DNA of 64,000 bases from Candidatus Saccharimonadota bacterium (GTDB lineage: Bacteria > Patescibacteriota > Saccharimonadia > Saccharimonadales > Saccharimonadaceae), in assembly GCA_009783305.1 (NCBI GenBank), contig WRHJ01000002.1:87097-151096 (forward strand), given 5' to 3'. Below the pieces are notes generated by a model, which was not told the origin of the DNA, did not search any database, and saw only the letters and a list, made by a program, of their open reading frames with translations. The stretch's first letter is position 1; each line of letters begins with the position of its first letter. Of this stretch, positions 5,070-31,899 are shown piece by piece. A program made the translations under genes and the position numbers.

Positions 5070-6119
5070 ATGGAAAAAGACACTTTCGATTACGAATCAA
5101 CCTCGCCAGACAGAATCGAGCAATGCCACGCGCTGCTAGACAACTGGCTAGATCAATTCCAAGAACAATCATCAACTGAACCACTTGAACAGTCCAAATT
5201 TCTCCTCATGGAAAACCATCTCCGCGCCGTCGTTGACAATATGGAAACCCTCGCCGACATCGCCGAAGTCAGCGAAGAGGACAAGGCCATCGCTGTCTTT
5301 ATTGCCACCATGCATGACAAATCTCGTCTTACCCAAGCTCTCATCGGCGACGAAGATAGCAAGGATCAAATCAATGGTCGTCCCCATGCCGCTATGAGCG
5401 CCATCCAGGCTCTCGGCAAGGGCAAAGCACACGAAATGTTGCAAGATAAGCTTTGGGGTCTTTCAGAAGACGACGCTCGCTGGGAGACCATCATGAACGG
5501 CGTAGGGCAGGGCATTGCCTATGAATTATTCCCTGATTTAACCGAAGGCGACGAAACTTGGGGCTGCCTTTTCCACGGCATATCCTTGCATATGTATCCC
5601 AAAGACGGCGTCGAGTTGTCAGATCTAGACTATCTTACGGACCGCGAAAGATTCTTTCTCGACCTCACCGTCAACGCCGATGCCGCCGCTAACTTGTCGC
5701 ACAAGTTTACCGACCCGGATCTCACCGAGCACCTCATGATCGTCAACGGGCACACCTTAGACGAACTCATCAATTCTCAAATTTCCCCAGACGTGCTCCG
5801 GCACGCCCTCGAAAAAAATGCCCCCATCGATTACAAAATCATTACCCATGACAACCGTAATCAAAACGCTGCCGATTGGTTCGTAGCCTGGATGTTGCAC
5901 GTCCACGGTGTCACTAGCCCCGATGTCGCCGCCGCCTTGCTCGACAAGGGCAGTCTAGCCACTATGGCAGAAATCGTCGACTATACCGACGCCGACACCC
6001 GCGCCCAAATGCAACAAGTATCTGCCAAATGTATCGCCCATCTCGAAAAAGTCAAAGCTCAAAAATACCCAGAAGAGTTCCCCTCAAGCTTTAACGCCCC
6101 GCTTCCTCAATCTGCCTAA
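5070..6119 (+). CDS. Hypothetical acidic protein (possible HD-type phosphohydrolase fold)
   Basis: Long ORF with codon usage like its neighbours. Only a weak H...HD-like string (FIATMHDKSR). Confidence 0.5.
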   Translation: MEKDTFDYESTSPDRIEQCHALLDNWLDQFQEQSSTEPLEQSKFLLMENHLRAVVDNMETLADIAEVSEEDKAIAVFIATMHDKSRLTQALIGDEDSKDQINGRPHAAMSAIQALGKGKAHEMLQDKLWGLSEDDARWETIMNGVGQGIAYELFPDLTEGDETWGCLFHGISLHMYPKDGVELSDLDYLTDRERFFLDLTVNADAAANLSHKFTDPDLTEHLMIVNGHTLDELINSQISPDVLRHALEKNAPIDYKIITHDNRNQNAADWFVAWMLHVHGVTSPDVAAALLDKGSLATMAEIVDYTDADTRAQMQQVSAKCIAHLEKVKAQKYPEEFPSSFNAPLPQSA

Positions 6120-6443
6120 TTTCTTTTTCGAACAATTCTCGCACCTAAACTGCGGATGCTTATCTTTTAATCGATCATAATTACTCGTCTTTACCAACCT
6201 GTAACCCTTTGCCACTTTCCCGCAGTCTTCGCACTTCACTTCATCTCTGATTTCCCACAGCGGGATCTTGTAATCTACCTTAAAAATAAATCTATCCACC
6301 CAAAAGAAAATCAAACCGCCAATCAGATTTGCAATCACCGTTGCCCACGTCACGTTCCAGTCGTTCAGCCATAACAGCACCACCGCCAAAATCGGCGTTG
6401 ATAACTGCCATCTAAAAAGATAAAACAAATATTTCTTGACCAC
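6084..6443 (-). CDS. Small membrane protein with a C-terminal CxxC...CxxC zinc ribbon
   Basis: Two or three TM segments followed by CEDCGK...CENCSKK. The GTG start overlaps the TAG of the upstream gene by 1 nt. Confidence 0.6.
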   Translation of the reverse strand: MVKKYLFYLFRWQLSTPILAVVLLWLNDWNVTWATVIANLIGGLIFFWVDRFIFKVDYKIPLWEIRDEVKCEDCGKVAKGYRLVKTSNYDRLKDKHPQFRCENCSKKKLGRLRKRGVKA

Positions 6444-7216
6444 TAGCGGGACTTCTTCTTGCCCTTTTTCGCTCGGCTCTTCTTCACAATTACTCCAGAT
6501 TGATCTATCGCTTTCGGCGACAATTGTCGTCGCATTGCTTTGCCAAACACCATATTGCTGCGCGTATTCTCGGCTTCTTGTTTTCGCTTACGTGCTGCCG
6601 CGATAAAGAAGATGAAGAACACAACTACCCCAAACAATAATCCGCTCAACAACACTCCAAACGTCTGTACCGCATATCCCCCGATATACAAATATCCGCC
6701 ATTTGCGCCAGTATCCGGCGGTTCAGGCGGTAACGGCAACGACCTATAATCAATAAACACGGGCAGAGTCACATTTGGTCCAATGCTTTCTACGCCGTCC
6801 AGCTTCACTGCCAATTCATACAAACCTAATCCATCCGGCAAATCTACCTGCGCTACAAATTCCGCATAAGTCGGTTCAATCTTATTGTAAGACCACAATA
6901 CGTTTCCATGCTGATCTTCAATCGTCACCAGACCAACACCCTCCACGCCCACGATCATGGGCACTCGTGAGTTATAGGTTACAAACGGGTCCGCCGTCGT
7001 ACCAGAACCGGGCAACGGCTGTTCCGGCACAAACTTGGCAACACAGTCGCACTCCGTTATTGGTTGGATGGTAACTTGCTGCCACGCTGCATTAGCGTTG
7101 GCTGTGCCATTTGCTACTGCAATGCCCACCAAAATATACATTGCCACGCCCAGTGCAAACGCAATCAAAGAAACCGCAATCGCCTTTATCCAATAACGAT
7201 TAGTTGCTGTTCGCAT
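6443..7216 (-). CDS. Bitopic surface protein with a PPDTG motif + TM + basic tail (sorting-signal-like)
   Basis: N-terminal TM, then a beta-rich ectodomain. The C-terminal region reads LPPEPPDTG followed by a hydrophobic stretch and RKRKQ.... Confidence 0.65.
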   Translation of the reverse strand: MRTATNRYWIKAIAVSLIAFALGVAMYILVGIAVANGTANANAAWQQVTIQPITECDCVAKFVPEQPLPGSGTTADPFVTYNSRVPMIVGVEGVGLVTIEDQHGNVLWSYNKIEPTYAEFVAQVDLPDGLGLYELAVKLDGVESIGPNVTLPVFIDYRSLPLPPEPPDTGANGGYLYIGGYAVQTFGVLLSGLLFGVVVFFIFFIAAARKRKQEAENTRSNMVFGKAMRRQLSPKAIDQSGVIVKKSRAKKGKKKSR

Positions 7217-7218
7217 GT

Positions 7219-8193
7219 CTACTTCCCTCCAGCTCTCTTCATTTTCTTTTTCTTGCGGTCATGCACAATCGTAAAAATGACTACTGCAATACACAATAAG
7301 ATTACTATAACCAACCAAATCGGGATAATAAAAGTCCACTTCTCAATCTCATAAGTTTCGCCCAAGGCCGTCACTGTCTGCTTAGTCTTGTAAATGCCCA
7401 TACCAGCATCAATCCAGCTGTCTGACGTTTTGCGCTTAGACTCGGCAGCAACAATTCTGTCCTGGGGCTCTGCATCTTCGTATACCAAACTGCCAAAAAT
7501 GTTATAAACCTCAATTTTCACGCTAGCGTGAAAATTCAACCGCCCGCAGTTTTCAATCTCTACCGTTGTCTTCAACGGTCCTTCGAATAACCAAAACGGT
7601 ATTGATTGATTTATCACCTTAGCGCAAGCATCACCCTCGCCCCCTGTCGCCCCCGTCGCATTTGTACCAAAAATATTCACGCCAATTGAACGAATTGCCT
7701 GCACGCTGCCCTCGTCGTCGCGATATTCTTGAAAAAACATATTCATGTATTGTTCGCCAAACGGCGCATTGCTAGGCGTTTTGGTTGAAAATTTTACATA
7801 ACACTCTTCCTTCACGCGCATATGTACAAATATGGCTCCATCTTCCACTCTTGTAACTTCACAACCTGGCTCCAGTGTAATTGTGGTCCAATCCACAATC
7901 TCATTGCGCGGCGTGCCAAGCATCGTTGTCTCACTCGAAAATTCCAATGGCGCAATACCAATTTTCAAATCCGTTTCCTGGCTGCCCACGTTGCGCACTC
8001 GGAACCTCTCGCCCGTAGTCGATCCTGGCGTCAAATTGAACTCTACATAGGCCGGGCTAATCGCAATCTGAAATTCCTCTCCCTGAAGTTCAATATTGTC
8101 ATTTATAACGGCTGCAACATCTCCAACCGGCAGAACCAAAGCTCCAATTACACCCACAATACCAATTCCGGCAAGCGCTCGCACAAACTTCAT
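7219..8193 (-). CDS. CscA-like cell-surface protein (DUF916/DUF3324-shaped)
   Basis: Signal peptide, an EFNLTPGSTTGERFRVRNVGSQETDLKIGI pattern, and a C-terminal TM plus KKKK tail. Size, topology and neighbourhood match the accessory protein of WxL loci. Confidence 0.55.
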   Translation of the reverse strand: MKFVRALAGIGIVGVIGALVLPVGDVAAVINDNIELQGEEFQIAISPAYVEFNLTPGSTTGERFRVRNVGSQETDLKIGIAPLEFSSETTMLGTPRNEIVDWTTITLEPGCEVTRVEDGAIFVHMRVKEECYVKFSTKTPSNAPFGEQYMNMFFQEYRDDEGSVQAIRSIGVNIFGTNATGATGGEGDACAKVINQSIPFWLFEGPLKTTVEIENCGRLNFHASVKIEVYNIFGSLVYEDAEPQDRIVAAESKRKTSDSWIDAGMGIYKTKQTVTALGETYEIEKWTFIIPIWLVIVILLCIAVVIFTIVHDRKKKKMKRAGGK

Positions 8194-8260
8194 AAAATAT
8201 TAACCTCTCTTTTTGTTGTTACTGCCCAAATTATAATGGTTATGCCAGTAGTCGTCAACC

Positions 8261-8288
8261 AAAATAACCTCCCGAAGGAGGCCATTTT
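8261..8288 (-). terminator. Intrinsic terminator after the 8310..8927 gene
   Basis: CCTCC-cgaa-GGAGG hairpin followed by a T-run on the minus strand. Confidence 0.5.
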
Positions 8289-8309
8289 GCATAAGGCGTT
8301 TCTTAAACC

Positions 8310-8927
8310 TTAAGGGCTAACAGCCGCAGATAGCAGGTAGTAGATCGTACCATAGAACTCGTTCGCACCTAACGTACCGTCGGTAGAAGCCGAGTAGGTT
8401 GGGGTAATCACTATACCACTAGTAGCAGTACCAGTAGCAATAGTCGAGAGTGTGGTAGCCAGCGCATAGCTTCCAGCCATTGAGCCGCCAGAACCACCCG
8501 TCACCGCAAGAGCAGCGCTCCATGTGTTAGCTGTACCGGCCGTAGCAACCCCAGTGCTTCTATATTCATAGCCAGTGGAACTAGTTCCGGTCGTGAAACC
8601 AGTCGAACCAAGCGTCGTGCCAGTAGCGCCAGTCGTAGACTCAGCACCAACCGCACCAGTCACAGCCTGCCACTCAAGCTCCCAAGCCTCCGTTGATTTA
8701 ACGGTCAGAGTGCTAGCGCTCCAATCGTCATTAGTTGTCAGTGACGGAGTGAGCAAGGCATTGCCGCCAGTACCGCCAAGAATCAACTCTTCATCCGGTG
8801 TAACCGTTACCTGATGCCAAGCCGGAGCAGGATCGCCAGGATCAGCAAAGGTCGGTACCGCAAGAATTGCGAAAGAGCCAACAATCGTTGCCACACCCAA
8901 AGCGCCAGCAATTATCTTCTTTGACAT
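8310..8927 (-). CDS. Small secreted WxL-like protein (paralog A)
   Basis: Signal peptide, TEAWELEWQAVTG, Gly/Thr-rich middle, C-terminus FYGTIYYLLSAAVSP. Clear paralog of 9006..9614. Confidence 0.55.
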   Translation of the reverse strand: MSKKIIAGALGVATIVGSFAILAVPTFADPGDPAPAWHQVTVTPDEELILGGTGGNALLTPSLTTNDDWSASTLTVKSTEAWELEWQAVTGAVGAESTTGATGTTLGSTGFTTGTSSTGYEYRSTGVATAGTANTWSAALAVTGGSGGSMAGSYALATTLSTIATGTATSGIVITPTYSASTDGTLGANEFYGTIYYLLSAAVSP

Positions 8928-8970
8928 ATTTTCCTTTCTAAATTTTTATTTTTTTGTTAGTACACGTTCC

Positions 8971-8998
8971 ATTATACACGTAAAAATGCTAATGTCAA
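8971..8998 (-). promoter_or_regulatory. Promoter of WxL-like paralog A
   Basis: Minus strand: TTGACA, 16 nt spacer, TATAAT. The -10 lies within a block shared with paralog B (TTTTTACGTGTAYAATGG). Confidence 0.55.
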
Positions 8999-9005
8999 TA
9001 CTGAT

Positions 9006-9614
9006 TTACGGTGCTGCGTTGTTGGACAATACGTAATAAATTGTGCCATAGTAAGATGTCATGCCCAGCGCACCGCTCGTACTAGCCGAATAAGTTGGCG
9101 TTACTGTCGCCACTACCGTCGGACTGCCCATTGCTACAGTCGACAGGGAAGTCGTCAACGTCGGCGTGGGTGCCAGAGAGCCCCCAGATGCTGCCAGCAC
9201 TGCACCCCACTGATCACCAGCGCTAGCCGTAGTTTGCGGACCAGCATAAGTGTAGCCTCCGCCGCCAGTAAACCCGCTCGTACCCAGATTTGTACCACCA
9301 GCGCCCACGATAGACGTAGCGCCCAAATTCCCAGTCACAGCTTGCCATTGCAATTTCCAAGTCACCGTGGACTTAATACTCATAGCCGCCGATTTTGAAT
9401 CGATAGCAGAGATCGTCGGATTAAGCGTTACATTAGTATTAACAGTACCACCCAAAATTATTTCATCCTCCGCCACCAAATTCACCTCGTGATCATCATA
9501 CGCATCTGCAAAAACCGGCGCCATCCAAACCGCACCGCCAATAATCACGGCTGCACCCAAAACACTAACAGTCGCCGCCTTTGATACCCCCCCTCTTTTT
9601 CTTTCGCTAATCAT
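9006..9614 (-). CDS. Small secreted WxL-like protein (paralog B)
   Basis: Signal anchor, TVTWKLQWQAVTG, C-terminus YYGTIYYVLSNNAAP. Confidence 0.55.
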   Translation of the reverse strand: MISERKRGGVSKAATVSVLGAAVIIGGAVWMAPVFADAYDDHEVNLVAEDEIILGGTVNTNVTLNPTISAIDSKSAAMSIKSTVTWKLQWQAVTGNLGATSIVGAGGTNLGTSGFTGGGGYTYAGPQTTASAGDQWGAVLAASGGSLAPTPTLTTSLSTVAMGSPTVVATVTPTYSASTSGALGMTSYYGTIYYVLSNNAAP

Positions 9615-9632
9615 AACTGTTTTATATCAACC

Positions 9633-9661
9633 ATTGTACACGTAAAAAACATTATATCAAA
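9633..9661 (-). promoter_or_regulatory. Promoter of WxL-like paralog B
   Basis: Minus strand: TTTGAT, 17 nt spacer, TACAAT, inside the conserved block TTTTTACGTGTACAATGG. Confidence 0.45.
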
Positions 9662-9766
9662 CCCATTTGACACTACAATTCTGTTGCATTTTGGTATAGC
9701 AAAACGAAAGCGCTTTAGGTATAATAAAAACATGTAAAAAAGGACGGTATTTAAAGATATAAATCT

Positions 9767-12700
9767 ATGTTAATCCTACCACGCAACATCCCAAGCGCCA
9801 TAGACAGGCGATTTCGGCAGTCGAAGCATCCCAATTTCTTCGGTCTCGCTATTGTTGGCCTTTTGGCATTTTTTGCTACCTTGATGATTATTCTCATCTC
9901 TAGGGCTGCTGGAGGTACCATCATCCTCACCCCGCCCACCGGTCCTGCCACTGGCGGCACATCCGTCACAATGGCAGCTGACCCTAACGGTCCCCAATGG
10001 TCAAACCAAGTTCTCAATTACCCCTTTGGTGGTACGGCCAGCACCACAGGCATGGAGCAGCAATTCATAGTGCCAGTCACTGGCAACTACAAATTGGAAG
10101 CTTGGGGCGCACAAGGCTCCAACACGGCTACTGGTGGCTTAGGCGGTAAAGGTGGATATTCTACCACTACGGTCCGATTGAACGCTGGGCAAACAGTTTA
10201 CATTGCCGTCGGTGGTGCCGGTGGCGTTGATGCTGCCGGCTGGAACGGTGGTGGCGCTGTTTTTGCCGGTGGTACTGGTGGCTCTGGTGGCGGTTCGACC
10301 CACATGTCTCTTGCTACTGCAGCATACACTACTGCCAACCGCAATGGTGCCAGCAACTTAGGCAACGCCACAGTGCGTTCAGCCACCAACTTACTGCTAG
10401 TAGCTGGTGGCGGTGGCGGTTCGCAGGGTGGTGGTCCGGCGACTTGTATCGGTGGCGCTGGCGGCGGCACAACTGGCCAAGCCGGTATCAATACTGGCTG
10501 TACCGGCGGTACGTCCGGCGGTGGCGGTACTCAATCGGCTGGTGGTAGCGCTGGGAATCCTGGCGGCAACCCTGGCACACAGGGTTTTGGTGGCTTTAGT
10601 ACTCAGCAAGGTGGTTCCACCTATGGTGGCGGTGGCGGTGGCGGTTACTGGGGCGGCGGCTCCGGTCAGGGTGGTCGTGGTGGTTCTGCTGGCGGTGGCT
10701 CCGGTTATGTCCCAACTACCATCAACAGTCAAGCCGCAACCGGTAACAGTTCAATTGCTGGCAACCTTTCAATCACCGATCCGGATGGCAGCACTGTTAC
10801 TGGCCACTCCGGTAACGGCTACGCCCGCATCACTATTCTTGAAACCGGCCTCTACGTTAAGCCAACCGTTCAATTCGGCACCGTCACGATTGCTGATGCC
10901 AACGTCACCTGGTGTAATTACAACGGATCCATTTGCACCAATGGCGGCGCACCAAATACCGTTACCTTTACCACGCCTCCACGCAATGCTCTGCCTGCTG
11001 CTAACAATGTGTGGTTAACCTTTGATCCAACCACAACCGGCACATTTACCTATTGGACGCCAGCCACATCCTATACCAATCAATGCACTATTGACAGCGG
11101 CTCTACTTGGGGGACACAACGCAATATCTCCGCTGGGGTGGCTGTTACTTGCCGCATTGTTCTGAATAATGCCTTTTCTGGCACCATTAGTTTAGCCGAT
11201 AATTACTCTAGTACCATTAACCCTAGTTTGTCCGGCAGTTTCGCCAGCAGCGATACACGTTTTGATGGTACCGACACCTTTACGGTCGACTATAACGACA
11301 CTTATACCTCTGGTGGCCAGATTTTGGAATATACCTATACCTCGCCGTCATGGAGCACTCTCATTGGCTATTGGGATCCGAGCGGCAGCAACCAAGCCAA
11401 TCTGATGCGACCAGGTATCAATGCCACCCCAACACCCAACAACGGTGTTCCAGAAATTGTCTTGGCCGGCGACACTCTAGTCTTGAGCATCCTTGCCGAA
11501 TCATACAAAATCAGTAGTAGTAGTAGTAGATTCTGCGAAGGCTGTCAATCCACCTTCACCATCACTACCTACGGCGCAATCTACTCGGGTTCCGTCACCC
11601 TGAGCGAAGATCTCAGCAATAGCGACAACCCCAGCGGTACCGCCGGCACATTCGTTTCGAACAACCCAGGCACTCCGAACATTGTCACTTTCGCTGGCAA
11701 TGGTGCCGACCAAACTTTCACCTATACCCCCGAAACTACTTCCATGACGCCACACTGGACCAGAATCAATGGTACTAGCGCCGGGCCAGCCATCACCAAC
11801 AATTATATCGATATCAATGTCACCCCAGCGACCATGCGTATTATCGGGCCAACCTCTTTGCATCGTGGTGAATATGGCGACTATACCTTGATCGTATACG
11901 ATCCAACTATCAGTTCAGTAGGATTGGCAGATTGGCTCAATGGTTCCGGTAATGCTGCTGATGGCACCTTCGCCGATATATCAAGCAGCCCTAATCCTAG
12001 TGGTACTTTTAACTCCAGCACCAATACCTATAACTTTTCCAGCTGTGTCACTACCGGCACCGATGCTTGTGTTCGCACTTTTCGTTACACTGCATACAGT
12101 AGTCTCTCTGATGCCGCTTCTTATGTAAGCATTGAGGCCGAATCCGATACTCTAGAATACACCTTCCTCAACGTCGATATCATTGCCAATAAAATTACAT
12201 TTTCCTGTAGTGCCAGCAATCCCAACTGCACCATTGCTTACGTCGAAGAATCACAAGTCTATAACCTCAGACCCAACGGTGTATTCACCGGATCAATTAA
12301 TATCACATCAGAAGATGCTGGGGCTAGCTTTAGCCCCAGCAGTACCATCTCATGGTCCAATAGTTCAGCTGCCATTGGCGTTGTTTACACCCCCAGTGCT
12401 CCTGGGCGCTATATATTGTCGGCGAACGTCACTAGCAGTCCCGACCTTAATATGAACGGTAAAACTTTTGACAGCAACACCGCCGATTCGCTCAACGATT
12501 ACATTTGGGTAATCGCCGACCAAACGACCTTCTTCACTGGTGACGATACTATCCCCAATGGCGGCAGCGGTACCTATACTTTGGCTTTGAATGGTCCCTT
12601 TGTAGGCACAGTTATACTATCCGACAATGACACCGTGAACGGCATACCTCAAGGTGGATCGTTTGACAATGGCGGTATCTGCAACTTTACTTTTGCCAAC

Positions 12701-15700
12701 TACAACCCCGACTCCAACACTTCGACCTGTACTTTTGTCTACACGCCAACTATCGAACCAGAAGAGCGCACCATTACTTTAGCGCCAACTTTTCCGCCCG
12801 AGTTCGACCGTCCGATGGACATCACGCCCATAGACATTACTGTTTACGGTTTTCCGGACATCAGGTTTATCAGTCCAAGCGACGGTCCATCTATCGGTGG
12901 CAACACGGTGTGGATTACGGGTGCCGGGCTGCAAGGTGTTTCATTCATCACCCTTGGCGGGATAATTGAAAACGACGAAGTTGTCGGCGGCATACCATGT
13001 ACCAATCTCAACATCCTGTCCGATGAAATGGTTACCTGTGTGGCACCAGCTCATACTGCAGGTACAGTCAATGTGTTCGCAAACAACATTATCCCGCCGC
13101 CCGACATAGATGATACCGATCCCAACGATCCGATAGAAATACCCAGAGATCCCGTGCAATATACTTATTTCAACGTCGCAACCGACTTCATAAACGAATG
13201 CGACGAAGACGGAAACGGCAGCTGGACTACCACTCCCTACGTCGTACCTGGAACCACAGTAGATTGTCGCATAGTTCTAAACGGCCGTTGGACTGGTCCC
13301 GTGACGCTGTCAGATGATTGGCACGAAACTATAGATCCAGGACTATCCGGCATCTTTACGTCCAGCGATATTCGCTTTGACAGTGGCACCAACACATTCG
13401 ATGTTCTGTACGGAGACACTGCCGATAGTACTGGTCAAACGCTTGAATATACTTGGACATCGCCTCCGTGGGGTGATGATTCCTCTGGACTCTTTCAATA
13501 TTGGAACCCCAACCGCAGCAACGAGGATGACCTCTGGTGGCCGATGATTAGTGTCGACATCCCAATCGATGAATATTACAATATATGGCTTACTTCTACC
13601 ACGGACGACGTAGTCTTTGGCTTGCTCGCTCAAGCCTACAATATCTACCCAGACGGCAATTACTCTTACTATTGTATAGATTGTGAAGTTGACTTTATTG
13701 TGTCCACCTACGGCGCACCATATGAGGGGACCATATCAGTAACAGATATCCTAGCCGATAGCGATGATCCATATGGCACTCAAGGTGTTTTCTGGGCCGG
13801 CGGCGTGCCTGATAACCCTGGCGTCATGAACTTCTCTGGCAGCGACGGCGCAGACAACAGCTTTAGCTACATCCCTGCCACTACCGCCGAAGGTCAGGAC
13901 ACCTTTATTCGATTGCAGGGTACCAGTTCCGATCCAAATATAGCAGACGTCTTCTATGATATTTTCCCAGTCCTAAATCCCGGCATTACCATTACGCCTA
14001 GCGCAGGTTGCAGCTTCATCGCTCGCAACCAAGTCTGTACCTATACTTTGTCGGTAGAGTTTGGCGCTGGCATGAACTGGAGCGGCACCGTCAGACTCAG
14101 CGACATATTTAATATTGACGACTCACCCGGAAAAGGCGTCTTTGCCGATGTCTCTGGTATTAGCGACTTCAACCCTAGTGGTACCTTCAGCCCATCAACT
14201 AACACTTATCTTTTCACTAGCTACGGCGGTGAAACTTACGAGCGAACCTTTACCTACACCTTGCGCGACGACAGCGTAGTTGGGCCGCTCTTCCCCAGTC
14301 ATATTTTGCAACTCACGGCAGAATCCAATATTCCAAATAACCAAACGTTCACCAACTTATTCATTTATGCCGACCGCATCAACACTGACTGCTCTCTCAG
14401 CTATCCAAATTGCAAAATTGGTTATGTTGGAAAATTGCAGGGTTATTCCTTCTCGCCAAACGGCGCAATGATGGGGACTGCCAATGTCACCGCCAGCGAT
14501 GCCGGTGCTCTCGGTATGCTAACTTGGTCCACAATCTCTGCCAATACGCACATTTTGTATTACACTCCAACAACACCTGGCCGCCAAGTACTTACCACCA
14601 CCATGGAACCTGGCGCTACACCAGCATCTATGTCAAATAAGAGTTTTGCCTCAAACGATCCAGAATCGCTTAACGATTACATTTGGGTGATGGCTAACCA
14701 AATGACTATCACTGGCCCAAGTTACCTTAGGTATAATTCAGCTGGTAATTTCACGCTAACTATGAATGGGCCATTTATCGGCACCATAGATCTTGATGAC
14801 TACATAGGCGCCATGAGCGGACCCGCCGCCGGAGGCGCCATTAGTCCAACCTCTTGCACATTTGCACTAATCGACTATAACTCCACCACCAATACTACCT
14901 CATGTAATTTTACCTATACCCCATACCTCTTTGAGGACATGACCACCGTAGTTCTGGAACCGAGCATTACTAGCTACAGCGGACCTCTTGCTATCAACCC
15001 GCTTTCCGTCACTGTTTACGGTCGTCCGATTATTGACTCTGTATCTCCCGATTCCGGCCCCACCATCGGCGGCACCGGCTTTGACGTCTCTTATAATCCT
15101 AGCGGAGTTATTACATTGACTGGTACAAATCTGGCAACCGGAAGCTCCCTAAACTTCGACAGCTTATTCATGGGCAATATACCAGTCCCTCTCGGCAACA
15201 TCAACATCATTGATAATGACAATATTACTTTCATCCCGCCGCCCAACTCTGCTGGTGGCGTAGATATCGTCGTGACTGCTGGTTCTCATGTCTATCATCA
15301 TCCAGATTATTACACCTACATACCGGAAGTAGACAGCATAAGCCCCATCATCGGTCCGACCACTGGCGGCACTGGTTTTGGCGCCAGTTATAATCCCAAT
15401 GGCACCGTAACTATTACAGGTGCTGACATTACGAACTCCCCCCGCTATTCTGATGGCACAAAACAATACTATGGCCTAGGTTGGCTCGACTTCACTGATA
15501 TTCAATATATAAATACCGGCGTCAACCAGCTCGGCAATACCAAAATGACCCTTGACGCCACGCGCGACAGCGGCATGTACGCTGCCGGTGTCTTAGTTGC
15601 AGGCCAGTACTTCTCCATCTATTTGCCAGACTCCGGCTTTAGATTGCCCAGTGCGAACTACGGCAACGTCAACGTTACCGCCGGCGGCGCCATGAATTCT

Positions 15701-17014: not shown

Positions 17015-17115
17015 AATTAGTCAATAAAAAATAAGAATAAGCTTTACAAAATACCATACCGGTGCAATACTTATACTAACTGCGTGTGTCATAAATAATA
17101 TATATGGAGTAGCAA

Positions 17116-20100
17116 ATGCATATAAAACACAAACGGCTCTTCGCCATTAGCCCTCGGCGGCTCAAATTTCTTGGTACCTTCCTAACTTTAGCCATACTGC
17201 TGTTTATCATCATCCGAGTATTGGCTGCGTCAATCATATCCGTAACCCCAAACACTGGTCCCAGCACTGGCGGGACAAACGTTATTATTACTGGCACCGG
17301 ATTTACCGACTATACTCCATCTGTACCTATTAATTTCCCTTATACTGGATCCTGCCAACCATACACAGTACCAGCTAACGGTTCATACCAGCTAGAAACT
17401 TGGGGTGCACAAGGCGGTACCGCTGGTCCATTTGCCGGTGGCCGTGGCGGTTACTCTACTGGTATCGTAAGCCTTACTGCTGGCACTACTTTATATATTT
17501 GTGTTGGTGGACAGGGGACAACTTCTTCGCGGACTACGTCCGCACCCTGGCCAGGCGGATTTAACGGCGGCGGCGGTTCAGCCCGCAGCAATAACGGTAA
17601 CGGCAAAGCTACAGGTTCGGGCGGCGGCGGCACTGATATCCGCATCGGCGCCAATTCATTATTTGCACGCGTAATTGTAGCAGGCGGCGGCGGCGGCGCA
17701 GCCGATCAGCAATTCGGAGCTATTCCTGGCGCAGCCGGCGGCGGGCTAAGCGGCATCACCTCGCCTAACCCTGGTGTCGTTGGAAGCGATTCCCCCGGAC
17801 AAGGCGGCACACAAACAGCCGGCGGCAACAACGGCATCGCCTGTTCCGGCGGCGGATCTTTCGGCGCAGGTGGTATTCCTTGCGGTATTGGCGTGACTGA
17901 TCGTTCCGGCGGCGGCGGCGGCTGGTTCGGCGGCGGCACCGGTGTAACCGGCGGCGGCGGCTCCGGTTTCGTGTACACGCAAGCTAGCGATGTTAGCTCA
18001 GCTACCATTGGTGGCACCTATCTTCTCAACGGCAGTTATTATCTATCTAGCGCCCAAACCATCGATGGCGCCACTTCCGCACCATCCTCGACTGTTCCTG
18101 GCGGTAATCAAGCTGGTCAACTCGGCAATGGCTTCGCCCGAATTACCCGATTGCCATACGACGTCACAATTGATGGCGCCGGTTGCGATAACATTGTAAT
18201 TGTCAACGATAACCAAATCACCTGTACTGTTCCCGCGCACAGCGCGGGTCCAGCCGATGTCGTGGTCACCATTGATCAGTCTGTCAGCACTTTGACCAAT
18301 GGCTACACCTACACTGACGAATTAACCATCTCCGGCCCAGACAAAATCGTGAGCAGGAGCGGCGCAGAATACGATATTTCTCTCGAGTATCCTTATACTG
18401 GCACCGTAACATTGGATGACGGCGGACTTGGCGGTACATGGACTGGCCCCAACGTCATCAACGGCAATCAAATTCAATTCAATCATAATGCATTAATCCA
18501 CGTGATTTATGTACCGCCAACAGGTTTTGGCGGAGACATCACTCTCACTGCCAATTCCGGCGTAAGTTATGTTGAAGACGCATCAAAAGACGTCAGTCTC
18601 GCAGCCGGCTCATATCTGCTTACTTGTTTTGACGACGAAAGCAACCCGACTAGCCAGCCGTTTATCATACCTGGGACCACGCTTGATTGTGAAGTCACAC
18701 TAGATGGCCCCTACGAAGGCACCATCACGCTTGCAGACATAGTTAGCGGTACCGGCAACAGCAGACTCGGCGGCGCATTCGCCAGCTTAGACATGCGATT
18801 TGACAACGACGTATTCACTACCACTTTTGCCGACACCGACGATGAATCTGGTCAAACCCTCGCGTTCACCTACACTTCGCCCACTTGGGGGCAAATTATG
18901 GGCGAAGACGGAGGCTACACTGGCATCACCTACGATAGCCTAGATCCCGCAAACCGGCAAAACGTATTCTGGCCGACATTGACCGCAACCAGCTCGCCCG
19001 TCTTAACCAGCTCGCAAAACGCCATCCGCATCGGGCTTCTGGCGCAAGCTTACACTATTGAATCAACTGACACCCCAGCGATTGATGCACCCGGCAGCAA
19101 CGGCTGTCTGAACTGTAGGGCCCGCTTCACTATCTCCACCTACGGTGCTCCATATTTCGGCGAGATTACTGTAACCTCCGAATATATTCCTGCCGGAGAA
19201 ACTACTCCTGTCACTGGCGGCGGCCTATTTGATGATGGCCAAACATCCGTCACCTATCCATTTTTCGGCGACGGCGCTAGACGGCCATTTGCCTTTACGC
19301 CAAGTGAAATTGGAGAGTTTACAATTACTGGGGTGAGCGATCTTCCAGCCATAGCCGACGACGAAATTACCTTCGATGTACTCAACTCGCATATCTCTAT
19401 CGTCTGCGATCCAATTTATCTCACCAGAGGCCAGACCACCGACTGTACTTTGCGACTGATAGTCACCGACAGCGATGTCCCCGGTATTGAAATAGATATG
19501 CAAGACATCTTCATGTACGGTTCCATAGAAAATAACGGTAATGGCGTATTTAATGACACTTCAAATGATTCCGGCAATCCCACCAGTACCCTCAGTGGCA
19601 ACGTCTTCTCGTTCTGCGGTGGTAGCAGCAATCCCCAAACCACCGGCGAATCCTGCGATGACCCTAGCGAAACCTATATCCGTACCTTTACCTATACTTT
19701 GCCCATTGATACAGATTTCCATTTCGCAGAAGTACGTATACAGGGCAGCAGTGAAGATTACATCCCAGCCGAAACCAGTTGGCAAATACTTGGCATTATG
19801 CCAGATACTATGACAATATCCTGTACAGAAGCTTATCCAACCTGCCAGACTTCTCGCGTCGGCTTCAACCAGCTACTCAACATTGAACCAAACGGCAAGT
19901 TCGTTGGCAAAGTCCAACTCAGCGACGATGATGGCGGCGTTTTTGGCGGCAGCGGCAGCGGTGATATCATTGAGTGGGACTACAGTGGCTACAGCAAAGA
20001 TTTCGACTATGCACCCGTATCTCCTGGCATAAAGACCATTACGGCTACCGTGATTGAAGTCGACGACAGCTTGCCCATCGGCATCCAAGTTGGCGACGAA

Positions 20101-23100
20101 TACACCTTTGAAGTCACCGTATACGCCAACGAAATGACAATCTTCGGCCCAGATTTCGTAGCATTAGACGACATATGGGATTATTACCGATTCGGACTTT
20201 CTCTCAACGGACCATACGAAGGTACGGTTACCTTCTCGCTATGGCAGATTAACGGCGCAATCGAGACCCCTCTGTTGCCTGACAGCTTCCCAATGACCGG
20301 CGACAATATCATAGACAACGAAGACGGCACCTACTCTTGCGCCGTAACTCTCGCTATGTATGACGAACCGACCAATACCACCACAGCCTGTATGGCTGAT
20401 AACGGCGGCGTCGGTACCGAGTTCGAAGGCTTTAACTATTTCGAAATTCGTGCCACCTCAGGCTCTTACATCCCCGATGTCGATAAAACCGTAGGTATTA
20501 TTGCCGGAACCGTATATGATCTTAGCAGCGGTTGGCCGCCAGACATGGTCCATGCCGGATACGACGTTCTATATGATGGTACAGACGCCACCACTGATAC
20601 TATTGTCGTAACGATTGGTACGCCAGTTAATTTCGTGATGCAACCCAACGCCTTATTTGCCGGCACCTACTCTGTCGATATTAGTGGGGCAACTGGCGCC
20701 GCCAGTCCGGATACTGTTGCAGTTACTGCTAGCGAATGGCCAGCGACCAACGATCAGACCCTGCAAACCAGAAATCTCGTCTTTACTCCCACCGCCACCG
20801 GCTACATGACCCTGACCTTTGATGCTCACCGTGACGGCACCAGTGCGCCCAATGATCCCCAAGATTTTGGCACCAAGACCGTAGAGCTCCTAGTGCTAGC
20901 AAACACCGCCTCAATCACTGGTCCATCTTCGGTCACGCACGGCAGCGATGATTTATTCACTTTGATAGTTGATGGACCATTTATCGGCACATTCTACATT
21001 GACGAATCAATCACCCCCAGCCACCTCAGCCCCTCCTCCTGCACCTTTGATCTAAACGATTATGACGAGCCCAGTAACACTACTTCTTGCGTTTTCGACC
21101 TTGCATCATACTTTGATGACGAATATGCAAACTTTGTCGAAGTGTTTGCCGTCTCTGGGTCAATCAGTGCAACCAAGACTGTCGACATCATAGCCGATGG
21201 CTACTCTGTGACAAATAGTTACACAACGGACCCCACCGAAACCTACTTCAACGCCAAGATTAATAATCCCATTATCTTTACAATCACGCCAAACGCCAAA
21301 CACGAAGGCGAGTTCATCATCTCTCAGAGTCCAGTTTCTGGCACCCTCATCGGCTCACCTATAGCGTATACGTTTGACGAATTCGCTGACTTGGATCAAA
21401 GAACTCCGCTGCCTAAAACCTTTACCTACACACCAACTAAATTCGGCACGGTTGTCCTCACTATCGATACTGATCTTGGTCCGCAAGATATCACACTCAA
21501 TATCTTCGATTGGCCAGTCATCGGCGGCCCCGATACTATAGTAAAAGGCCAAACTAGCGGCGAATATACTCTTTCTGTCATGGGCGCATTTGATGGTCCA
21601 ATCGACCTAACCATCTGGGATGCGATTACCGAAACACAAATTACGACTGCGACTATCATTTCCAATACTAACGGCAGGATAGACGACACAAACAATAATT
21701 GTGACTTTGCCCCATCTGATATAGACTCCGAAACAGGCATTACTACATGTACTTTCACATTTGAATTACCCCCTTCATTTACGGGCAACTACATAGAAAT
21801 CCACTCGGATGATCCCAATGTAGCAATCAGCGGTCTGGTAGCTGACGCTCACGGTGTAGCCGTCATAGCAAATGATTTCGCCGTTACTCCAAGCTCGGTG
21901 TTAAATGCCACCATTAACCAACCTCTTACCTTTACCATCACGCCAAATGCCTTATACGACGGCACATTTACCCTCCACGCCCCAGCCGGCGGTCCATTTA
22001 GCGAGCCTTCCATCTCTTTCACGCCAGCCGATTGGCCAGATGATCAATCTGCTATGGATGGAAAAGAATTTACCTACACTCCACAACACCACGGCCAAAA
22101 CAACATTGAAGTTTGCAGCACGGACCTTGGTTGTCAGACTATCAATATCCTAGTTCTGGCCGACGACATGAGTATTACCGGCAGCTCTGCTATCCAGCTC
22201 AATAACACTTCAATGACCGGCAGCTACACCCTGACTATTCCTGGTCCCTACGAAGGCACCGTAGAATTTACCGTTACCGATAATGCCACTGGCGCACCCA
22301 TTTCGCCCCTATTATTCAGCAACGACGGCTACTGTACCTTCACCACTGACGACTTCGAAGACATAACGCCAGGTTCTACAGTGTGCTCGTTTACCGTAGA
22401 TTTTCCGGCACCACTCACACCGACCAAGTGGGTTAAAATTACCGCTACCACTGCAGACGGCGACAAAGAACTTACTACTGCCAACACTCTCACAGCTATC
22501 ACTGCAAATGATTACGCTCTATCTCCTAGTACCAGTCAAACTGTAACTGTAGGCCAATATGTCACATTTACCATTACGCCAAATGCAATCGCTACAAGTT
22601 CATTTGGAATTAGCACAAACGGTGCCTCCACCCTGAGCACTGCCGCAGTCGGTTTTGCCATGATTGACTATCCTAATACGAGTAATGCAGACGTCAGCAA
22701 AACTTTCCGAGTCACCACTACCACTCCTGGCATCGAAACCATCACCGTTACTAGTCCGCTAGGCACAAAGACTATCCAAATTACAACTTTGGCATCCGAG
22801 ATCGGTATTACTGGACCGGATAGAATCAAACAGGGCACTACCAGTAGTCCTTTCACCCTAACAATTAACGGTCCATACGACGGTACAGCTACCATCTCGA
22901 CCTACTTGCCAGTAGCAGGCGGCAGTACTAGCACGCCAGTTCCGGGCATCACAACATCCATCAGTTCCTGCACATTTGATATCGCAACACACTACAATGC
23001 AGTAACAAATACCACCAGTTGCTCCTTTACGGTATCAGTACCGCTAGCATACGCTCTGGCCAATTACGTAGGCATAACCGCATCAGCTCCAGGATTGACC

Positions 23101-24216
23101 GGCGACCCAATTGTAGCGATTACAGCTGATAGCTTTACCTTAGCACCAACCCCAACGACAACTGGCCAGGTTGGCACGCCAATTACCTTCACTATAACGC
23201 CAAATGGTTTGTTTGAAGGCACATTTAACCTAAGCGATGGCGGTGCCGGCGGAACATTTAGCCCAACCAGCATGGTATACAACTCTTCAAGTTGGCCGGC
23301 CGTAACAGATCACACCTTGCCAACTGGACGAACCTTCACCTATACGCCAGCAGTACCAGGCATCGTTACTATCACAGTCAGCGACGCAGACGCCACAGCA
23401 GCCGGAATCGGCAACCAACAGACCATCATTACGGTTATGGCAAATGGCGGCGTTTTCGCCGGCGGTACAATGATTGAACCAGGCGACAGCGACACATATA
23501 CCCTAACAGTAAACGGCCCGTATGTAGGTGACGTGAATTTGGATTTGTATCGACCAGGTGGCGGTGGCACAGATTTGACCGATGCTGGGACGTTCAGCAA
23601 TAGCGGTGTATGCTCCTTCACTCTTGCAACCTATAATTCTGTGGCTAACACTACTACCTGCACGTTCACGGTCACTTTCCCAGACGAGGGCGATTTAATG
23701 GACGCCTTTGGCGGCACCAACTGGATACGAATCAGAGCCAGTGGCGCCACCGGTGTACTCATACCGCCCCTCACGATTGGCGTAACAGCAACTAGCTTTG
23801 ATGTTGAACTAGAAACAGATCCTCCAGTGGTCGGTGAGCCAATCACCTTCAACATCACTCCAAATGGCCTATCAGAAGAAACATTTATTGTAACTGACGA
23901 AAATGGCATCGAGGTTGACCGAGTCACATTTGTGCCAGGCGACTGGCCGGCCAGTCCAGATCAAAGCCGCTATAGTCGGCCATTCCAGTTCACATCAGAT
24001 CGCGGCGGCAATAGGGAACTAACAGTCTGTAATACCGACACAGATGTTTGCGAAACAATCAGATTCACAGTTCTAGATGAAGCACCGGATCCACCCGACA
24101 CAGGCTTCTTTAGCACAGGAGAAGCATCTTTTGTGGTTGCTAGCACCAGCGGACTGCTAATCGCAGGTGTTTCAACCTTCCTATTCCTCGCCCGTCGCCG
24201 TCGTCGCCAGAAATAA
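17116..24216 (+). CDS. Giant surface protein 2 (2,366 aa): TM anchor, IPT-nested glycine-rich domain, one supermodule, about 6-7 tandem di-modules, C-terminal PPDTG + TM + RRRRRQK
   Basis: Uninterrupted 7.1-kb ORF with an SD (TGGAG). Its N-terminal ~1,100 aa are paralogous to giant 1. The C-terminus looks like a sortase sorting signal. Confidence 0.85.
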   Translation: MHIKHKRLFAISPRRLKFLGTFLTLAILLFIIIRVLAASIISVTPNTGPSTGGTNVIITGTGFTDYTPSVPINFPYTGSCQPYTVPANGSYQLETWGAQGGTAGPFAGGRGGYSTGIVSLTAGTTLYICVGGQGTTSSRTTSAPWPGGFNGGGGSARSNNGNGKATGSGGGGTDIRIGANSLFARVIVAGGGGGAADQQFGAIPGAAGGGLSGITSPNPGVVGSDSPGQGGTQTAGGNNGIACSGGGSFGAGGIPCGIGVTDRSGGGGGWFGGGTGVTGGGGSGFVYTQASDVSSATIGGTYLLNGSYYLSSAQTIDGATSAPSSTVPGGNQAGQLGNGFARITRLPYDVTIDGAGCDNIVIVNDNQITCTVPAHSAGPADVVVTIDQSVSTLTNGYTYTDELTISGPDKIVSRSGAEYDISLEYPYTGTVTLDDGGLGGTWTGPNVINGNQIQFNHNALIHVIYVPPTGFGGDITLTANSGVSYVEDASKDVSLAAGSYLLTCFDDESNPTSQPFIIPGTTLDCEVTLDGPYEGTITLADIVSGTGNSRLGGAFASLDMRFDNDVFTTTFADTDDESGQTLAFTYTSPTWGQIMGEDGGYTGITYDSLDPANRQNVFWPTLTATSSPVLTSSQNAIRIGLLAQAYTIESTDTPAIDAPGSNGCLNCRARFTISTYGAPYFGEITVTSEYIPAGETTPVTGGGLFDDGQTSVTYPFFGDGARRPFAFTPSEIGEFTITGVSDLPAIADDEITFDVLNSHISIVCDPIYLTRGQTTDCTLRLIVTDSDVPGIEIDMQDIFMYGSIENNGNGVFNDTSNDSGNPTSTLSGNVFSFCGGSSNPQTTGESCDDPSETYIRTFTYTLPIDTDFHFAEVRIQGSSEDYIPAETSWQILGIMPDTMTISCTEAYPTCQTSRVGFNQLLNIEPNGKFVGKVQLSDDDGGVFGGSGSGDIIEWDYSGYSKDFDYAPVSPGIKTITATVIEVDDSLPIGIQVGDEYTFEVTVYANEMTIFGPDFVALDDIWDYYRFGLSLNGPYEGTVTFSLWQINGAIETPLLPDSFPMTGDNIIDNEDGTYSCAVTLAMYDEPTNTTTACMADNGGVGTEFEGFNYFEIRATSGSYIPDVDKTVGIIAGTVYDLSSGWPPDMVHAGYDVLYDGTDATTDTIVVTIGTPVNFVMQPNALFAGTYSVDISGATGAASPDTVAVTASEWPATNDQTLQTRNLVFTPTATGYMTLTFDAHRDGTSAPNDPQDFGTKTVELLVLANTASITGPSSVTHGSDDLFTLIVDGPFIGTFYIDESITPSHLSPSSCTFDLNDYDEPSNTTSCVFDLASYFDDEYANFVEVFAVSGSISATKTVDIIADGYSVTNSYTTDPTETYFNAKINNPIIFTITPNAKHEGEFIISQSPVSGTLIGSPIAYTFDEFADLDQRTPLPKTFTYTPTKFGTVVLTIDTDLGPQDITLNIFDWPVIGGPDTIVKGQTSGEYTLSVMGAFDGPIDLTIWDAITETQITTATIISNTNGRIDDTNNNCDFAPSDIDSETGITTCTFTFELPPSFTGNYIEIHSDDPNVAISGLVADAHGVAVIANDFAVTPSSVLNATINQPLTFTITPNALYDGTFTLHAPAGGPFSEPSISFTPADWPDDQSAMDGKEFTYTPQHHGQNNIEVCSTDLGCQTINILVLADDMSITGSSAIQLNNTSMTGSYTLTIPGPYEGTVEFTVTDNATGAPISPLLFSNDGYCTFTTDDFEDITPGSTVCSFTVDFPAPLTPTKWVKITATTADGDKELTTANTLTAITANDYALSPSTSQTVTVGQYVTFTITPNAIATSSFGISTNGASTLSTAAVGFAMIDYPNTSNADVSKTFRVTTTTPGIETITVTSPLGTKTIQITTLASEIGITGPDRIKQGTTSSPFTLTINGPYDGTATISTYLPVAGGSTSTPVPGITTSISSCTFDIATHYNAVTNTTSCSFTVSVPLAYALANYVGITASAPGLTGDPIVAITADSFTLAPTPTTTGQVGTPITFTITPNGLFEGTFNLSDGGAGGTFSPTSMVYNSSSWPAVTDHTLPTGRTFTYTPAVPGIVTITVSDADATAAGIGNQQTIITVMANGGVFAGGTMIEPGDSDTYTLTVNGPYVGDVNLDLYRPGGGGTDLTDAGTFSNSGVCSFTLATYNSVANTTTCTFTVTFPDEGDLMDAFGGTNWIRIRASGATGVLIPPLTIGVTATSFDVELETDPPVVGEPITFNITPNGLSEETFIVTDENGIEVDRVTFVPGDWPASPDQSRYSRPFQFTSDRGGNRELTVCNTDTDVCETIRFTVLDEAPDPPDTGFFSTGEASFVVASTSGLLIAGVSTFLFLARRRRRQK
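17329..18153 (+). other. Glycine-rich domain (ALK/LTK-type Gly_rich family) of giant 2
   Basis: YTVPANGSYQLETWGAQGG...GGRGGYS...LYICVGGQG...GGGGTDIRIG...VIVAGGGGGA...GNGFARITRL. Confidence 0.6.
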
Positions 24217-24220
24217 ACAT

Positions 24221-24250
24221 AAAAAAATGAGCCATTTGGCTCATTTTTTT
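24221..24250. terminator. Bidirectional intrinsic terminator
   Basis: A-run, then ATGAGCCA-tt-TGGCTCAT hairpin, then T-run. It sits between giant 2 and tRNA-Asn. Confidence 0.7.
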
Positions 24251-24251
24251 A

Positions 24252-24326
24252 TGGCTCCCCGGACTGGACTCGAACCAGTAACCTCGAAGTTAACAGCTTC
24301 TTGCTCCACCATTGAGCTACCGGGGA
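24252..24326 (-). tRNA. tRNA-Asn (GTT)
   Basis: The reverse complement folds as a cloverleaf. Acceptor TCCCCGG/CCGGGGA, anticodon loop CTGTTAA, T-loop TTCGAGT, encoded CCA. Confidence 0.9.
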
Positions 24327-31694: not shown

Positions 31695-31899
31695 TTTTCT
31701 CCTCTTCTGCTTTCTTCTCCTTCTCCATATCCGCCTTTGCCTTCGCCACCAATTCTTGCATCTCTGCTTCCACCACTTCCGGCGGCCTATTCAATTCATC
31801 TGATTTTTTCTTCATCCTATTTCTCACTATGCCCACCACCAGAAAAGCTCCCACTATGATTGCTACCCCCGTTAGCATTGCCGGCATCAACCCATCCAT
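31687..31899 (-). CDS. 70-aa membrane-anchored charged-helix peptide inserted between the lepA halves
   Basis: One TM (LTGVAIIVGAFLVVGIV) plus a Lys/Glu-rich helix. The start overlaps the upstream stop (TAATG). The stop overlaps the downstream start (ATGAGTGA). Confidence 0.5.
   Translation of the reverse strand: MDGLMPAMLTGVAIIVGAFLVVGIVRNRMKKKSDELNRPPEVVEAEMQELVAKAKADMEKEKKAEEEKNE

Follow-up and report, generated by a model that had tools for sequence, protein, structure and literature searches.

WxL (Csc) gene clusters, found in Lactobacillales, Listeria and Bacillus, are defined by at least one WxLIP and at least two WxL proteins encoded within four genes, often together with an LPXTG protein. 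A WxLIP combines DUF916, DUF3324 and a transmembrane (TM) helix in 320-380 amino acids (aa) and is divided into PGBD, HBD and TMH. WxL domains contain a proximal motif in the context ..D.RG...GW.L.V.. and a distal motif in the context Y...LTW.L...P. More than 91% of known WxL proteins are from Firmicutes and the large members are 500-1,000 aa long. In published AlphaFold2 (AF2) models, one hairpin strand of the WxLIP completes the β-sandwich of the WxL domain. Two other kinds of system are close enough to be compared here, namely chaperone-usher pili (Fim, Pap, Csu, CFA/I, Caf1) and donor-strand fibres built without an usher (TLP-1a/b, TasA, archaeal threads, bundling pili). In this study we describe a locus in a 64,000-nucleotide stretch of contig WRHJ01000002.1 (hereafter the window) from a Candidatus Saccharimonadota bacterium. 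In this locus five minus-strand genes for small secreted and membrane proteins lie beside two plus-strand genes for proteins of about 2,400 aa.

We consider it likely (probability about 0.6) that this locus is a conserved surface module of Saccharibacteria with a WxL (Csc)-like organisation. It is probably a very distant relative of the WxL clusters, at least through its WxLIP-like part, and too diverged for the Pfam models WxL, DUF916 and DUF3324. The first-pass annotation of this DNA, which was made from the letters alone, had proposed a WxL-like cluster in a putative cell of the Candidate Phyla Radiation (CPR), and the host is indeed one of the Saccharibacteria. An identical protein has already been deposited as a hypothetical protein of 'Candidatus Saccharibacteria bacterium'. 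We found no paper linking WxL to Saccharibacteria. The map of open reading frames (ORFs) contains five minus-strand and two plus-strand ORFs in this locus:

6084-6443, minus strand: 119-aa protein
6443-7216, minus strand: 257-aa protein (the anchor protein)
7219-8193, minus strand: 324-aa protein (the WxLIP-like protein)
8310-8927, minus strand: 205-aa small secreted paralog
9006-9614, minus strand: 202-aa small secreted paralog
9767-17014, plus strand: giant 1, 2,415 aa, divergent from the small-gene side
17116-24216, plus strand: giant 2, 2,366 aa

All seven ORFs lie where the first-pass annotation had placed them. Its tight junctions at 7216/7219 and 6443 are a 2-nt gap between the 324- and 257-aa genes and a 1-nt overlap between the 257- and 119-aa genes. 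The paralogies, terminator and tRNA-Asn that it reported were also found, as were all of the peptide strings that it quoted (TEAWELEWQAVTG, TVTWKLQWQAVTG, FYGTIYYLLSAAVSP, YYGTIYYVLSNNAAP, GTWGYQVG and EYSQTITYTAVADP).

To compare this locus with authentic clusters, we used a DUF916 motif query that returned 291 plasmid records and took clusters from six of them. The gene order in these clusters is large WxL, LPXTG, small WxL(s) and DUF916/DUF3324 (WxLIP). The proposed Csc composition held up, in that the genes described here map role for role onto CscA/WxLIP, CscB/small WxL, CscC/large WxL and CscD/LPXTG. Both systems contain a membrane-anchored protein of ~320-360 aa with two immunoglobulin (Ig)-like domains and one to three small secreted proteins that consist of a β-sandwich only. 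Both also contain an unanchored large multidomain adhesin that ends in the small-protein type of domain and an xPxTG-anchored protein, and in both the genes are tightly clustered and the clustering is conserved. The roles and clustering of a WxL locus are reproduced and conserved, whereas formal WxL/WxLIP family membership is not found by sequence. The systems also differ. Membership of the Pfam families WxL, DUF916 or DUF3324 could not be detected for the proteins of this locus; Tyr stands in place of the distal Trp (of both Trp in the giant), and D-x-R-G is absent around the first motif; and no Pro-rich linker follows the N-terminal strand. The anchored protein is 220-260 aa long with an ectodomain and a long tail in contrast to ~100 aa in authentic clusters, and its gene comes after that of the WxLIP-like protein, not ahead of the small genes. 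As the first-pass annotation had noted, WxL loci are essentially a feature of Firmicutes and have much smaller members; the large member here has ~2,400 aa and the host is one of the Saccharibacteria.

A link to the WxL system is suggested by the 324-aa protein. Its AF2 model (predicted local distance difference test score, pLDDT, 82.7) contains a helix at residues 2-19, β domains at ~43-178 and 191-289, and a helix at 292-322. The protein is thereby predicted to have a signal peptide followed by two tandem Ig-like β-sandwiches and a C-terminal TM helix, encoded at 7264-7326, behind which lies a basic tail. The signal peptide and C-terminal TM segment had been proposed beforehand and are seen in the model; together with the length of 324 aa, this is the architecture of a WxLIP. 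When this model was compared with the PDB using Foldseek, the top three matches were EfmWxLIP1 of E. faecium, either alone (9i1y_A, 9i1y_B) or 'bound to long WxL' (9i25_C), with E values of 1.7e-10 to 3.8e-9 and a probability of 1.0 over ~278 columns. The next matches were RbmA and the PapD-like domains of CEP192, followed by the usher-pathway chaperones CsuC, FimC, CfaA, YadV and SfaE (E ~1e-7). At the level of sequence, a single hhalign comparison of the 324-aa ectodomain family with six authentic WxLIP ectodomains gave P 7.9e-4 over 117 columns in the DUF916 part, with P 0.37 for the reversed control. In this alignment the family motif QIAISPxYxEFDLxPG stands opposite the WxLIP signature NQIDKxxxYFDLK, which is similar but not identical. 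In the window, the motif EFQIAISPAYVEFNLTPG occupies 8023-8076 (minus strand). Neither DUF916 (PF06030) nor DUF3324 (PF11797) matched the 324-aa protein at E<=1, and a profile of its family did not reach EfmWxLIP1 among PDB sequences, whereas an authentic E. faecium WxLIP reaches it at 1e-38. The description of this protein as DUF916/DUF3324-shaped is borne out for its shape by the Foldseek matches and the weak profile match, and is not supported if taken to mean membership in the Pfam families. We regard the WxLIP link as weakly but consistently supported. There are 19 homologues of the 324-aa protein. A scan of GTDB species representatives with its family found no relative, suggesting that the family is narrow. 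A second, divergent copy of the gene (22% identity) is located just upstream of the module in L032 (656-1444, minus strand); related loci are cited here by such L numbers.

The small paralogs, the anchor protein and their N-terminal strand

The 205- and 202-aa proteins are 46% identical. The 205-aa protein has a Sec signal peptide, and both proteins end without a sorting signal (...YYLLSAAVSP and ...YYVLSNNAAP). The 257-aa anchor protein has a long N-terminal hydrophobic segment, an ectodomain of ~120 aa, a PPDTG motif, a TM segment and a long basic tail. The motifs of the three proteins, all on the minus strand, are as follows:

9468-9497, minus strand: DDHEVNLVAE, 202-aa protein
9330-9359, minus strand: WKLQWQAVTG, 202-aa protein
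9024-9053, minus strand: YYGTIYYVLS, 202-aa protein
8796-8825, minus strand: PAWHQVTVTP, N-terminal strand of the 205-aa protein
8655-8684, minus strand: WELEWQAVTG, 205-aa protein
8502-8528, minus strand: NTWSAALAV, 205-aa protein
8328-8357, minus strand: FYGTIYYLLS, C-terminal strand of the 205-aa protein
7061-7090, minus strand: AAWQQVTIQP, anchor protein
6707-6721, minus strand: PPDTG, anchor protein
6593-6676, minus strand: TM segment, anchor protein

The AF2 model of the 205-aa protein (pLDDT 81.8) is all-β and its N-terminal 47 residues have no secondary structure. The mature N-terminal segment is near-invariant across the small family (W37, V40, V42), yet it is unstructured in this monomer model. 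In every locus, the ~250-aa anchor protein begins, after its hydrophobic leader, with the same motif that starts the mature small paralogs:

Window: anchor AAWQQVTIQP, small protein PAWHQVTVTP
L003: anchor AWHQVTV, small protein AWHQVTV
L034: anchor AAWHQVTVRP, small protein TAWHQVTVTP
L018 (divergent): anchor QDTEVRVTVT, small protein EDTEVKVTVD

The best ungapped 10-mer score between anchor and small protein was reached by no more than 1.3% of shuffles in all seven loci tested. In L018 the motif co-varies, with the anchor and small protein altered together. The N-terminal strand shared by the anchor and small proteins is a new finding. We observed a comparable relationship in authentic WxL clusters, where the N-terminal strands of LPXTG and small WxL proteins were significantly alike in two of five clusters (GITFYDEETT/GTITYEEDTT in L012, EYDSNGVTAF/NYDTNGVITF in L013) and shared just a loose [ST]xGx[IV]xF pattern in the other three. 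In both systems, then, the anchored protein can have the N-terminal strand of the small protein. These sequence likenesses hint that the LPXTG protein may plug into a WxL domain in the authentic clusters. In L009-L013, clusters on plasmid records of Listeria, Bacillus and Enterococcus, the small LPXTG (CscD-type) proteins open with an amphipathic strand like the N-terminal one of the small WxL protein from the same cluster, a likeness of which we know no earlier description.

A search of 5.8 billion clusters returned 22 homologues of the small paralog, and an exhaustive profile search of 1.84 billion proteins found 24 cluster representatives of the family. The Pfam WxL domain occurs in none of the relatives found by the profile search, so these 24 representatives provide no bridge from the small family to WxL. 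Searches of PDB sequences with profiles of the small and 324-aa families yielded nothing relevant. A WxL query sequence and an authentic E. faecalis small WxL also had no match in the PDB; the C-terminus of an authentic large WxL reached 9i25_A. The best PDB match of the 205-aa model in Foldseek was TLP-1a/b (9ikj/9ikk), an environmental donor-strand-exchange fibril, and this match is weak (E 5e-3, TM-score 0.34, root-mean-square deviation 12 Å). Further matches were to pilin domains of PapG and FimH and to CfaB, Csu and Caf1; all of these matches, TLP-1a/b included, are weak (E 0.005-1, TM-score 0.3-0.35).

A consensus scan identified promoter-like sites upstream of three of the five minus-strand genes:

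9633-9660, minus strand: 10/12 consensus positions, before the 202-aa gene, in the interval between it and the divergent gene for giant 1
8971-8998, minus strand: perfect sigma-70 consensus TTGACA-N16-TATAAT, 43 nt upstream of the 205-aa gene
8230-8258, minus strand: 11/12 consensus positions, before the 324-aa gene

The site at 8971-8998 is the sole perfect TTGACA-N16-TATAAT in the window, and 100 shuffles produced no such site, which suggests that the 205-aa paralog alone is very highly expressed. The minus-strand genes had been described as an operon; given promoter-like sites before the 202-, 205- and 324-aa genes, this operon is putative.

In L001 and L006 the gene next after the anchor gene encodes a membrane-anchored thioredoxin-like (PedC-like) protein. 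Conserved Cys pairs (ECxxGG...CN; CDC) occur in more distant small paralogs and in the anchor proteins. Together these suggest extracytoplasmic disulfide formation.

The giant proteins and conservation of the locus

The two giants are paralogous, with ~30% identity over several stretches of ~600 aa (E 2e-47). Giant 1 has an N-terminal TM segment or signal anchor, an ALK/LTK-type glycine-rich domain, two super-modules of ~700 aa, TIG domains and no sorting signal (Pfam: ALK_LTK_GRD 4e-21, TIG 7e-22). Giant 2 has an N-terminal anchor, a glycine-rich domain, a TIG domain, repeated modules and a sortase-type signal at its end (Pfam: ALK_LTK_GRD 6e-38, TIG 1e-8; Gram_pos_anchor at E 0.021, below the curated cut-off). 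A PPDTG motif, a TM segment and then a basic tail are found in the 257-aa protein and in giant 2 alike, in line with the earlier proposal of two sorting-signal-like tails. The main features of the giants are:

~10079-10840, plus strand: glycine-rich domain of giant 1
16565-17011, plus strand: C-terminal domain of giant 1, ~150 aa, with NGYRLYMEST, GTWGYQVG and EYSQTITYTAVADP
~17377-18150, plus strand: glycine-rich domain of giant 2
24091-24105, plus strand: PPDTG of giant 2
24133-24213, plus strand: hydrophobic stretch and RRRRRQK of giant 2

The C-terminal domain of giant 1 is kept in P0042, L003, L018, L025 and L032. A homologue search with the giant-1 C-terminus returned one fragment only. 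Alignment of the small family with the giant-1-type C-terminal domain (four sequences) using hhalign gave P 0.0027 with 119 collinear columns, in comparison to 0.52 for the reversed control. This domain thus appears, weakly and from sequence, to be related to the small paralogs, a relationship that parallels the one between large and small WxL proteins.

We examined synteny using contig look-ups, a metagenome scan and local tblastn and found the gene set to be strongly co-conserved in relatives. Wherever the contig extends far enough (L001, L003, L005-L007, L018 and most of the 17 metagenome loci L021-L037), one or two small paralogs come before the 324-aa homologue and the ~250-aa protein comes after it. 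This three-gene order is strictly kept across more than 20 loci, down to ~25-35% identity, and the pair formed by the small gene and a 330-aa gene persists at ~25-30% identity (L016, L019). Two small paralogs, as in the window, also occur in L007/L022 and L036. In L018 the small gene has a sortase gene immediately upstream. Giants whose C-terminal domain is of the giant-1 type often adjoin the module, in four orientations (L003, L005/L028, L018, L025, L032, L036), including:

Divergent, as in the window: L005/L028, L036
Upstream on the same strand: L003; L025 (71% identity over 2,098 aa)
Convergent: L018, L032

In L003 two small genes with a CdiA_C toxin domain (PF18451), at 9113-9496 and 10700-11080, flank the small paralog; the adjacent giant exceeds 4,600 aa and contains TIG and Flg_new domains. 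These genes may link the adhesin module to contact-dependent toxins.

Alternative readings and the proposed assembly

Several results weigh against relating this module to the WxL clusters. Pfam and NCBIfam were run on all seven proteins and reported to E<=1, and at this level neither WxL nor DUF916 nor DUF3324 matched any of them; WxL (PF13731) was likewise without a match in the small paralogs, the giants and 15 further family members. When either the small family or the C-terminal domain of the giant was set against 15 authentic WxL domains using hhalign, P was 0.04-0.13, which is not significant, and in default mode just the last 12-21 columns (16 for the small family) were aligned, essentially the last strand. 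The positive control, authentic small versus large WxL, gave P 3.7e-13 over 136 columns. The profile P-values for this locus are modest and come from single comparisons. The match of the 324-aa model to EfmWxLIP1 has a TM-score of just 0.33-0.42, probably in part because of the interdomain angle, and leads generic two-Ig proteins by only ~30-fold. We confirmed that the PDB sequence copy contains the solved WxL domain 9i25_A, but the 50 Foldseek matches listed for the 205-aa model (of 233 at E<=10) do not include it; the sole type of WxL domain that has been solved is the long one, and the small and large types reportedly differ in structure. At 257 aa, the anchor protein far exceeds CscD-type LPXTG proteins in length, and its long cytoplasmic tail is atypical for sortase substrates. 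No sortase gene was detected by local tblastn over the whole window or by Pfam among 20 neighbouring ORFs. The first-pass annotation was to be given up if likeness to WxL and to DUF916/DUF3324 both failed, or if synteny failed; of these, likeness to WxL alone failed.

A first alternative, the strict form of the first-pass reading, is that the small paralogs and the giant-1 C-terminus are genuine divergent WxL domains that bind peptidoglycan non-covalently, with Tyr in place of the distal Trp. The layout is right. The domain is C-terminal, standing alone behind a signal peptide in the small form and following other domains in the large form; the motifs occur in the WxL order of W/Y-x-L, then G-x-W, then a terminal Y-x-x-T-[IL]-x-[YW]-x-[LV]; permissive hhalign sets them opposite the authentic ones; the partner is WxLIP-like; and the motif spacing in the small proteins is 115 residues, compared with ~106 reported for small WxL. 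The details of the motifs are less favourable. The small paralogs have a proximal W-E/K-L without D-x-R-G and a Tyr at the distal Trp (TIYYLLS), both positions are Tyr in giant 1 (GYRLYM, ITYTAV), and the spacing in giant 1 is 104 residues versus ~68 for large WxL. Usher-pathway pilins, too, typically have a terminal G-x-Y-x-x-x-V-x-Y-x-L strand, and this pattern is therefore not specific to WxL. With the blank Pfam model, the profile P-values far from that of the control and 9i25_A missing from the 50 matches listed, we judge this idea to be unlikely. The motif order and C-terminal position that the first-pass annotation described do stand, and so does the WxLIP-like partner; since strict membership fails, the name 'WxL domains' is not justified. 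At the opposite extreme, the genes may encode no dedicated complex. The proteins would then be independent but co-located, comprising a generic Ig membrane protein, abundant secreted coat proteins and large adhesins, and their likeness to WxL would be a coincidence. All sequence-level links to WxL and WxLIP are weak, two-Ig folds are common and the 324-aa model has hundreds of Foldseek matches at E<1e-3. Such independence fits poorly with a three-gene order kept at such low identity, with an N-terminal motif that is common to, and co-varies between, two otherwise unrelated proteins, and with a giant-1 C-terminal domain that is related to the small proteins and recurs beside the module in four orientations. 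This explanation seems to us very improbable.

A third alternative is a more specific form of the reading we prefer, with a polymer instead of a 1:1 complex. The small proteins would polymerise head to tail into a donor-strand-exchange fibre without an usher, giant 1 would sit at the tip by means of its C-terminal acceptor domain, the 257-aa protein would end or anchor the fibre with the same donor strand, and the 324-aa protein would be a membrane-tethered PapD-like chaperone. The best PDB matches of the small-paralog model are all donor-strand-exchange subunits, the 324-aa model matches the CsuC, FimC, CfaA, YadV and SfaE chaperones, and the mature N-terminus is conserved and yet unstructured in the monomer. 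The anchor protein has the same, co-varying strand, and a perfect promoter precedes the 205-aa gene, as it would for a major subunit. Chaperone-usher pili offer a similar tip-adhesin logic, in which a large protein ends in a pilin-like domain, and an amphipathic N-terminal subunit strand; the secreted subunits of the non-usher fibres resemble the small proteins in their length of ~200 aa, their signal peptide and an N-terminal strand for which monomer predictions show disorder. The differences are considerable. The matches of the small-paralog model are weak, the likeness to chaperone-usher proteins stays at TM-scores of 0.3-0.5, and TLP-1a/b shares no sequence similarity with the small paralog. 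There is neither an usher or other assembly platform nor an outer membrane here, the chaperone-like protein is membrane-anchored and an xPxTG/TM anchor protein is present instead. The non-usher fibres need no WxLIP-like partner. Some loci have a small gene and a 324-like gene but no anchor gene (L016), and the filaments described on Saccharibacteria are type IV pili, with no fibre of this kind reported. We therefore hold the fibre to be possible but tentative. We give no greater weight to the general proposal behind it, that a monoderm CPR locus may encode an undescribed usher-free strand-exchange assembly. In such an assembly, small subunits and an anchor would thread their N-terminal strand into the open β-sandwich of the next subunit, the C-terminal domain of a giant adhesin would end the chain and the chaperone would be membrane-tethered and WxLIP-like.

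Known systems were also considered and rejected. A chaperone-usher pilus was set aside given that no usher-like gene occurs in this locus or in related loci and that the chaperone-like 324-aa protein is TM-anchored. The signal peptides are of the ordinary Sec type with no class III motif, which does not fit type IV pilins. Sortase-assembled (LPXTG) pilins do not fit small proteins that lack LPXTG, with PPDTG plus TM solely in the 257-aa protein and giant 2. A TasA/SipW system was dismissed as well, with no TasA among the structural matches and no signal peptidase gene in the locus.

For the WxL-like module that we favour, we infer physical contacts, surface location and an adhesive function along the following lines. 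The 324-aa protein would be anchored in the membrane by its C-terminal helix and present two Ig-like domains like those of WxLIP. The 205- and 202-aa proteins would be secreted β-sandwich subunits, the former probably abundant. Giant 1 would act as a long adhesin with glycine-rich and TIG domains, have no covalent anchor, and end in a β-sandwich domain of the small-protein kind. The 257-aa protein would be held in the membrane or wall by its xPxTG, TM segment and basic tail and would present the N-terminal strand of the small proteins. Giant 2 would be displayed separately through its sortase-type signal. The assembly principle is likely to be strand complementation, by analogy with what is predicted for WxLIP-WxL complexes, and this fits the pilin-like and chaperone-like structural neighbours. 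The β-sandwich domains would be completed in trans by a strand from the WxLIP-like protein, from the N-termini of the small and anchor proteins, or from both. In this way the giant adhesin, which has no anchor of its own, could be held at the cell surface and bind a host cell or some other surface.

Surroundings of the locus and significance

The 119-aa protein has two TM segments in its N-terminal part and, in its C-terminal part, a zinc ribbon with a double CxxC, for which Pfam and NCBIfam gave sub-threshold zinc-finger matches only. Its gene is 82-89% identical in L025, L033, L034 and L035, where the neighbouring genes are 54-65% identical, and it is absent from L001, L003, L005, L006, L007 and L018. 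We rejected it as a core component since it is kept in near relatives only and missing from more distant loci; it is an accessory gene outside the core module. The remaining features of the locus are:

6216-6233, minus strand: CEDCGK of the 119-aa protein
6126-6143, minus strand: CENCSK of the 119-aa protein
24218-24253: terminator-like palindromic hairpin with a 16-bp stem, set between A/T runs and immediately following the stop codon of giant 2
24252-24326, minus strand: tRNA-Asn, its end overlapped by the hairpin

The tRNA-Asn marks the boundary of the locus, which is flanked by housekeeping genes for a deacetylase, a HAD hydrolase, GlmS and an aminotransferase. Elsewhere in the window, lepA is seemingly split into two minus-strand ORFs ~200 nt apart, at 30729-31694 and 31899-32735 (a pair of GTPase part and C-terminal part), which could be a frameshift, a pseudogene or an assembly error. 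A phosphoketolase gene is split into overlapping plus-strand ORFs at 37270-38223 (XFP N-terminal) and 38204-39379 (central and C-terminal domains), likely through a frameshift or sequencing error.

Saccharibacteria live attached to host bacteria, and the molecules that hold them there are largely obscure beyond type IV pili and a few adhesins. The locus described here is a concrete, conserved candidate for an apparatus that displays giant adhesins, and its small components have no annotation. If our interpretation is correct, it would extend WxL/WxLIP-type complexes to a CPR phylum in a form that standard models miss. The strand shared by a wall-anchored protein and small subunits, both here and in some authentic WxL clusters, suggests a strand-donation rule of assembly for both systems. 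Because authentic LPXTG proteins also have the N-terminal strand of small WxL proteins, usher-free strand exchange, if true, could account for the assembly of the long-puzzling WxL/Csc complexes of Firmicutes and for their attachment to the wall.

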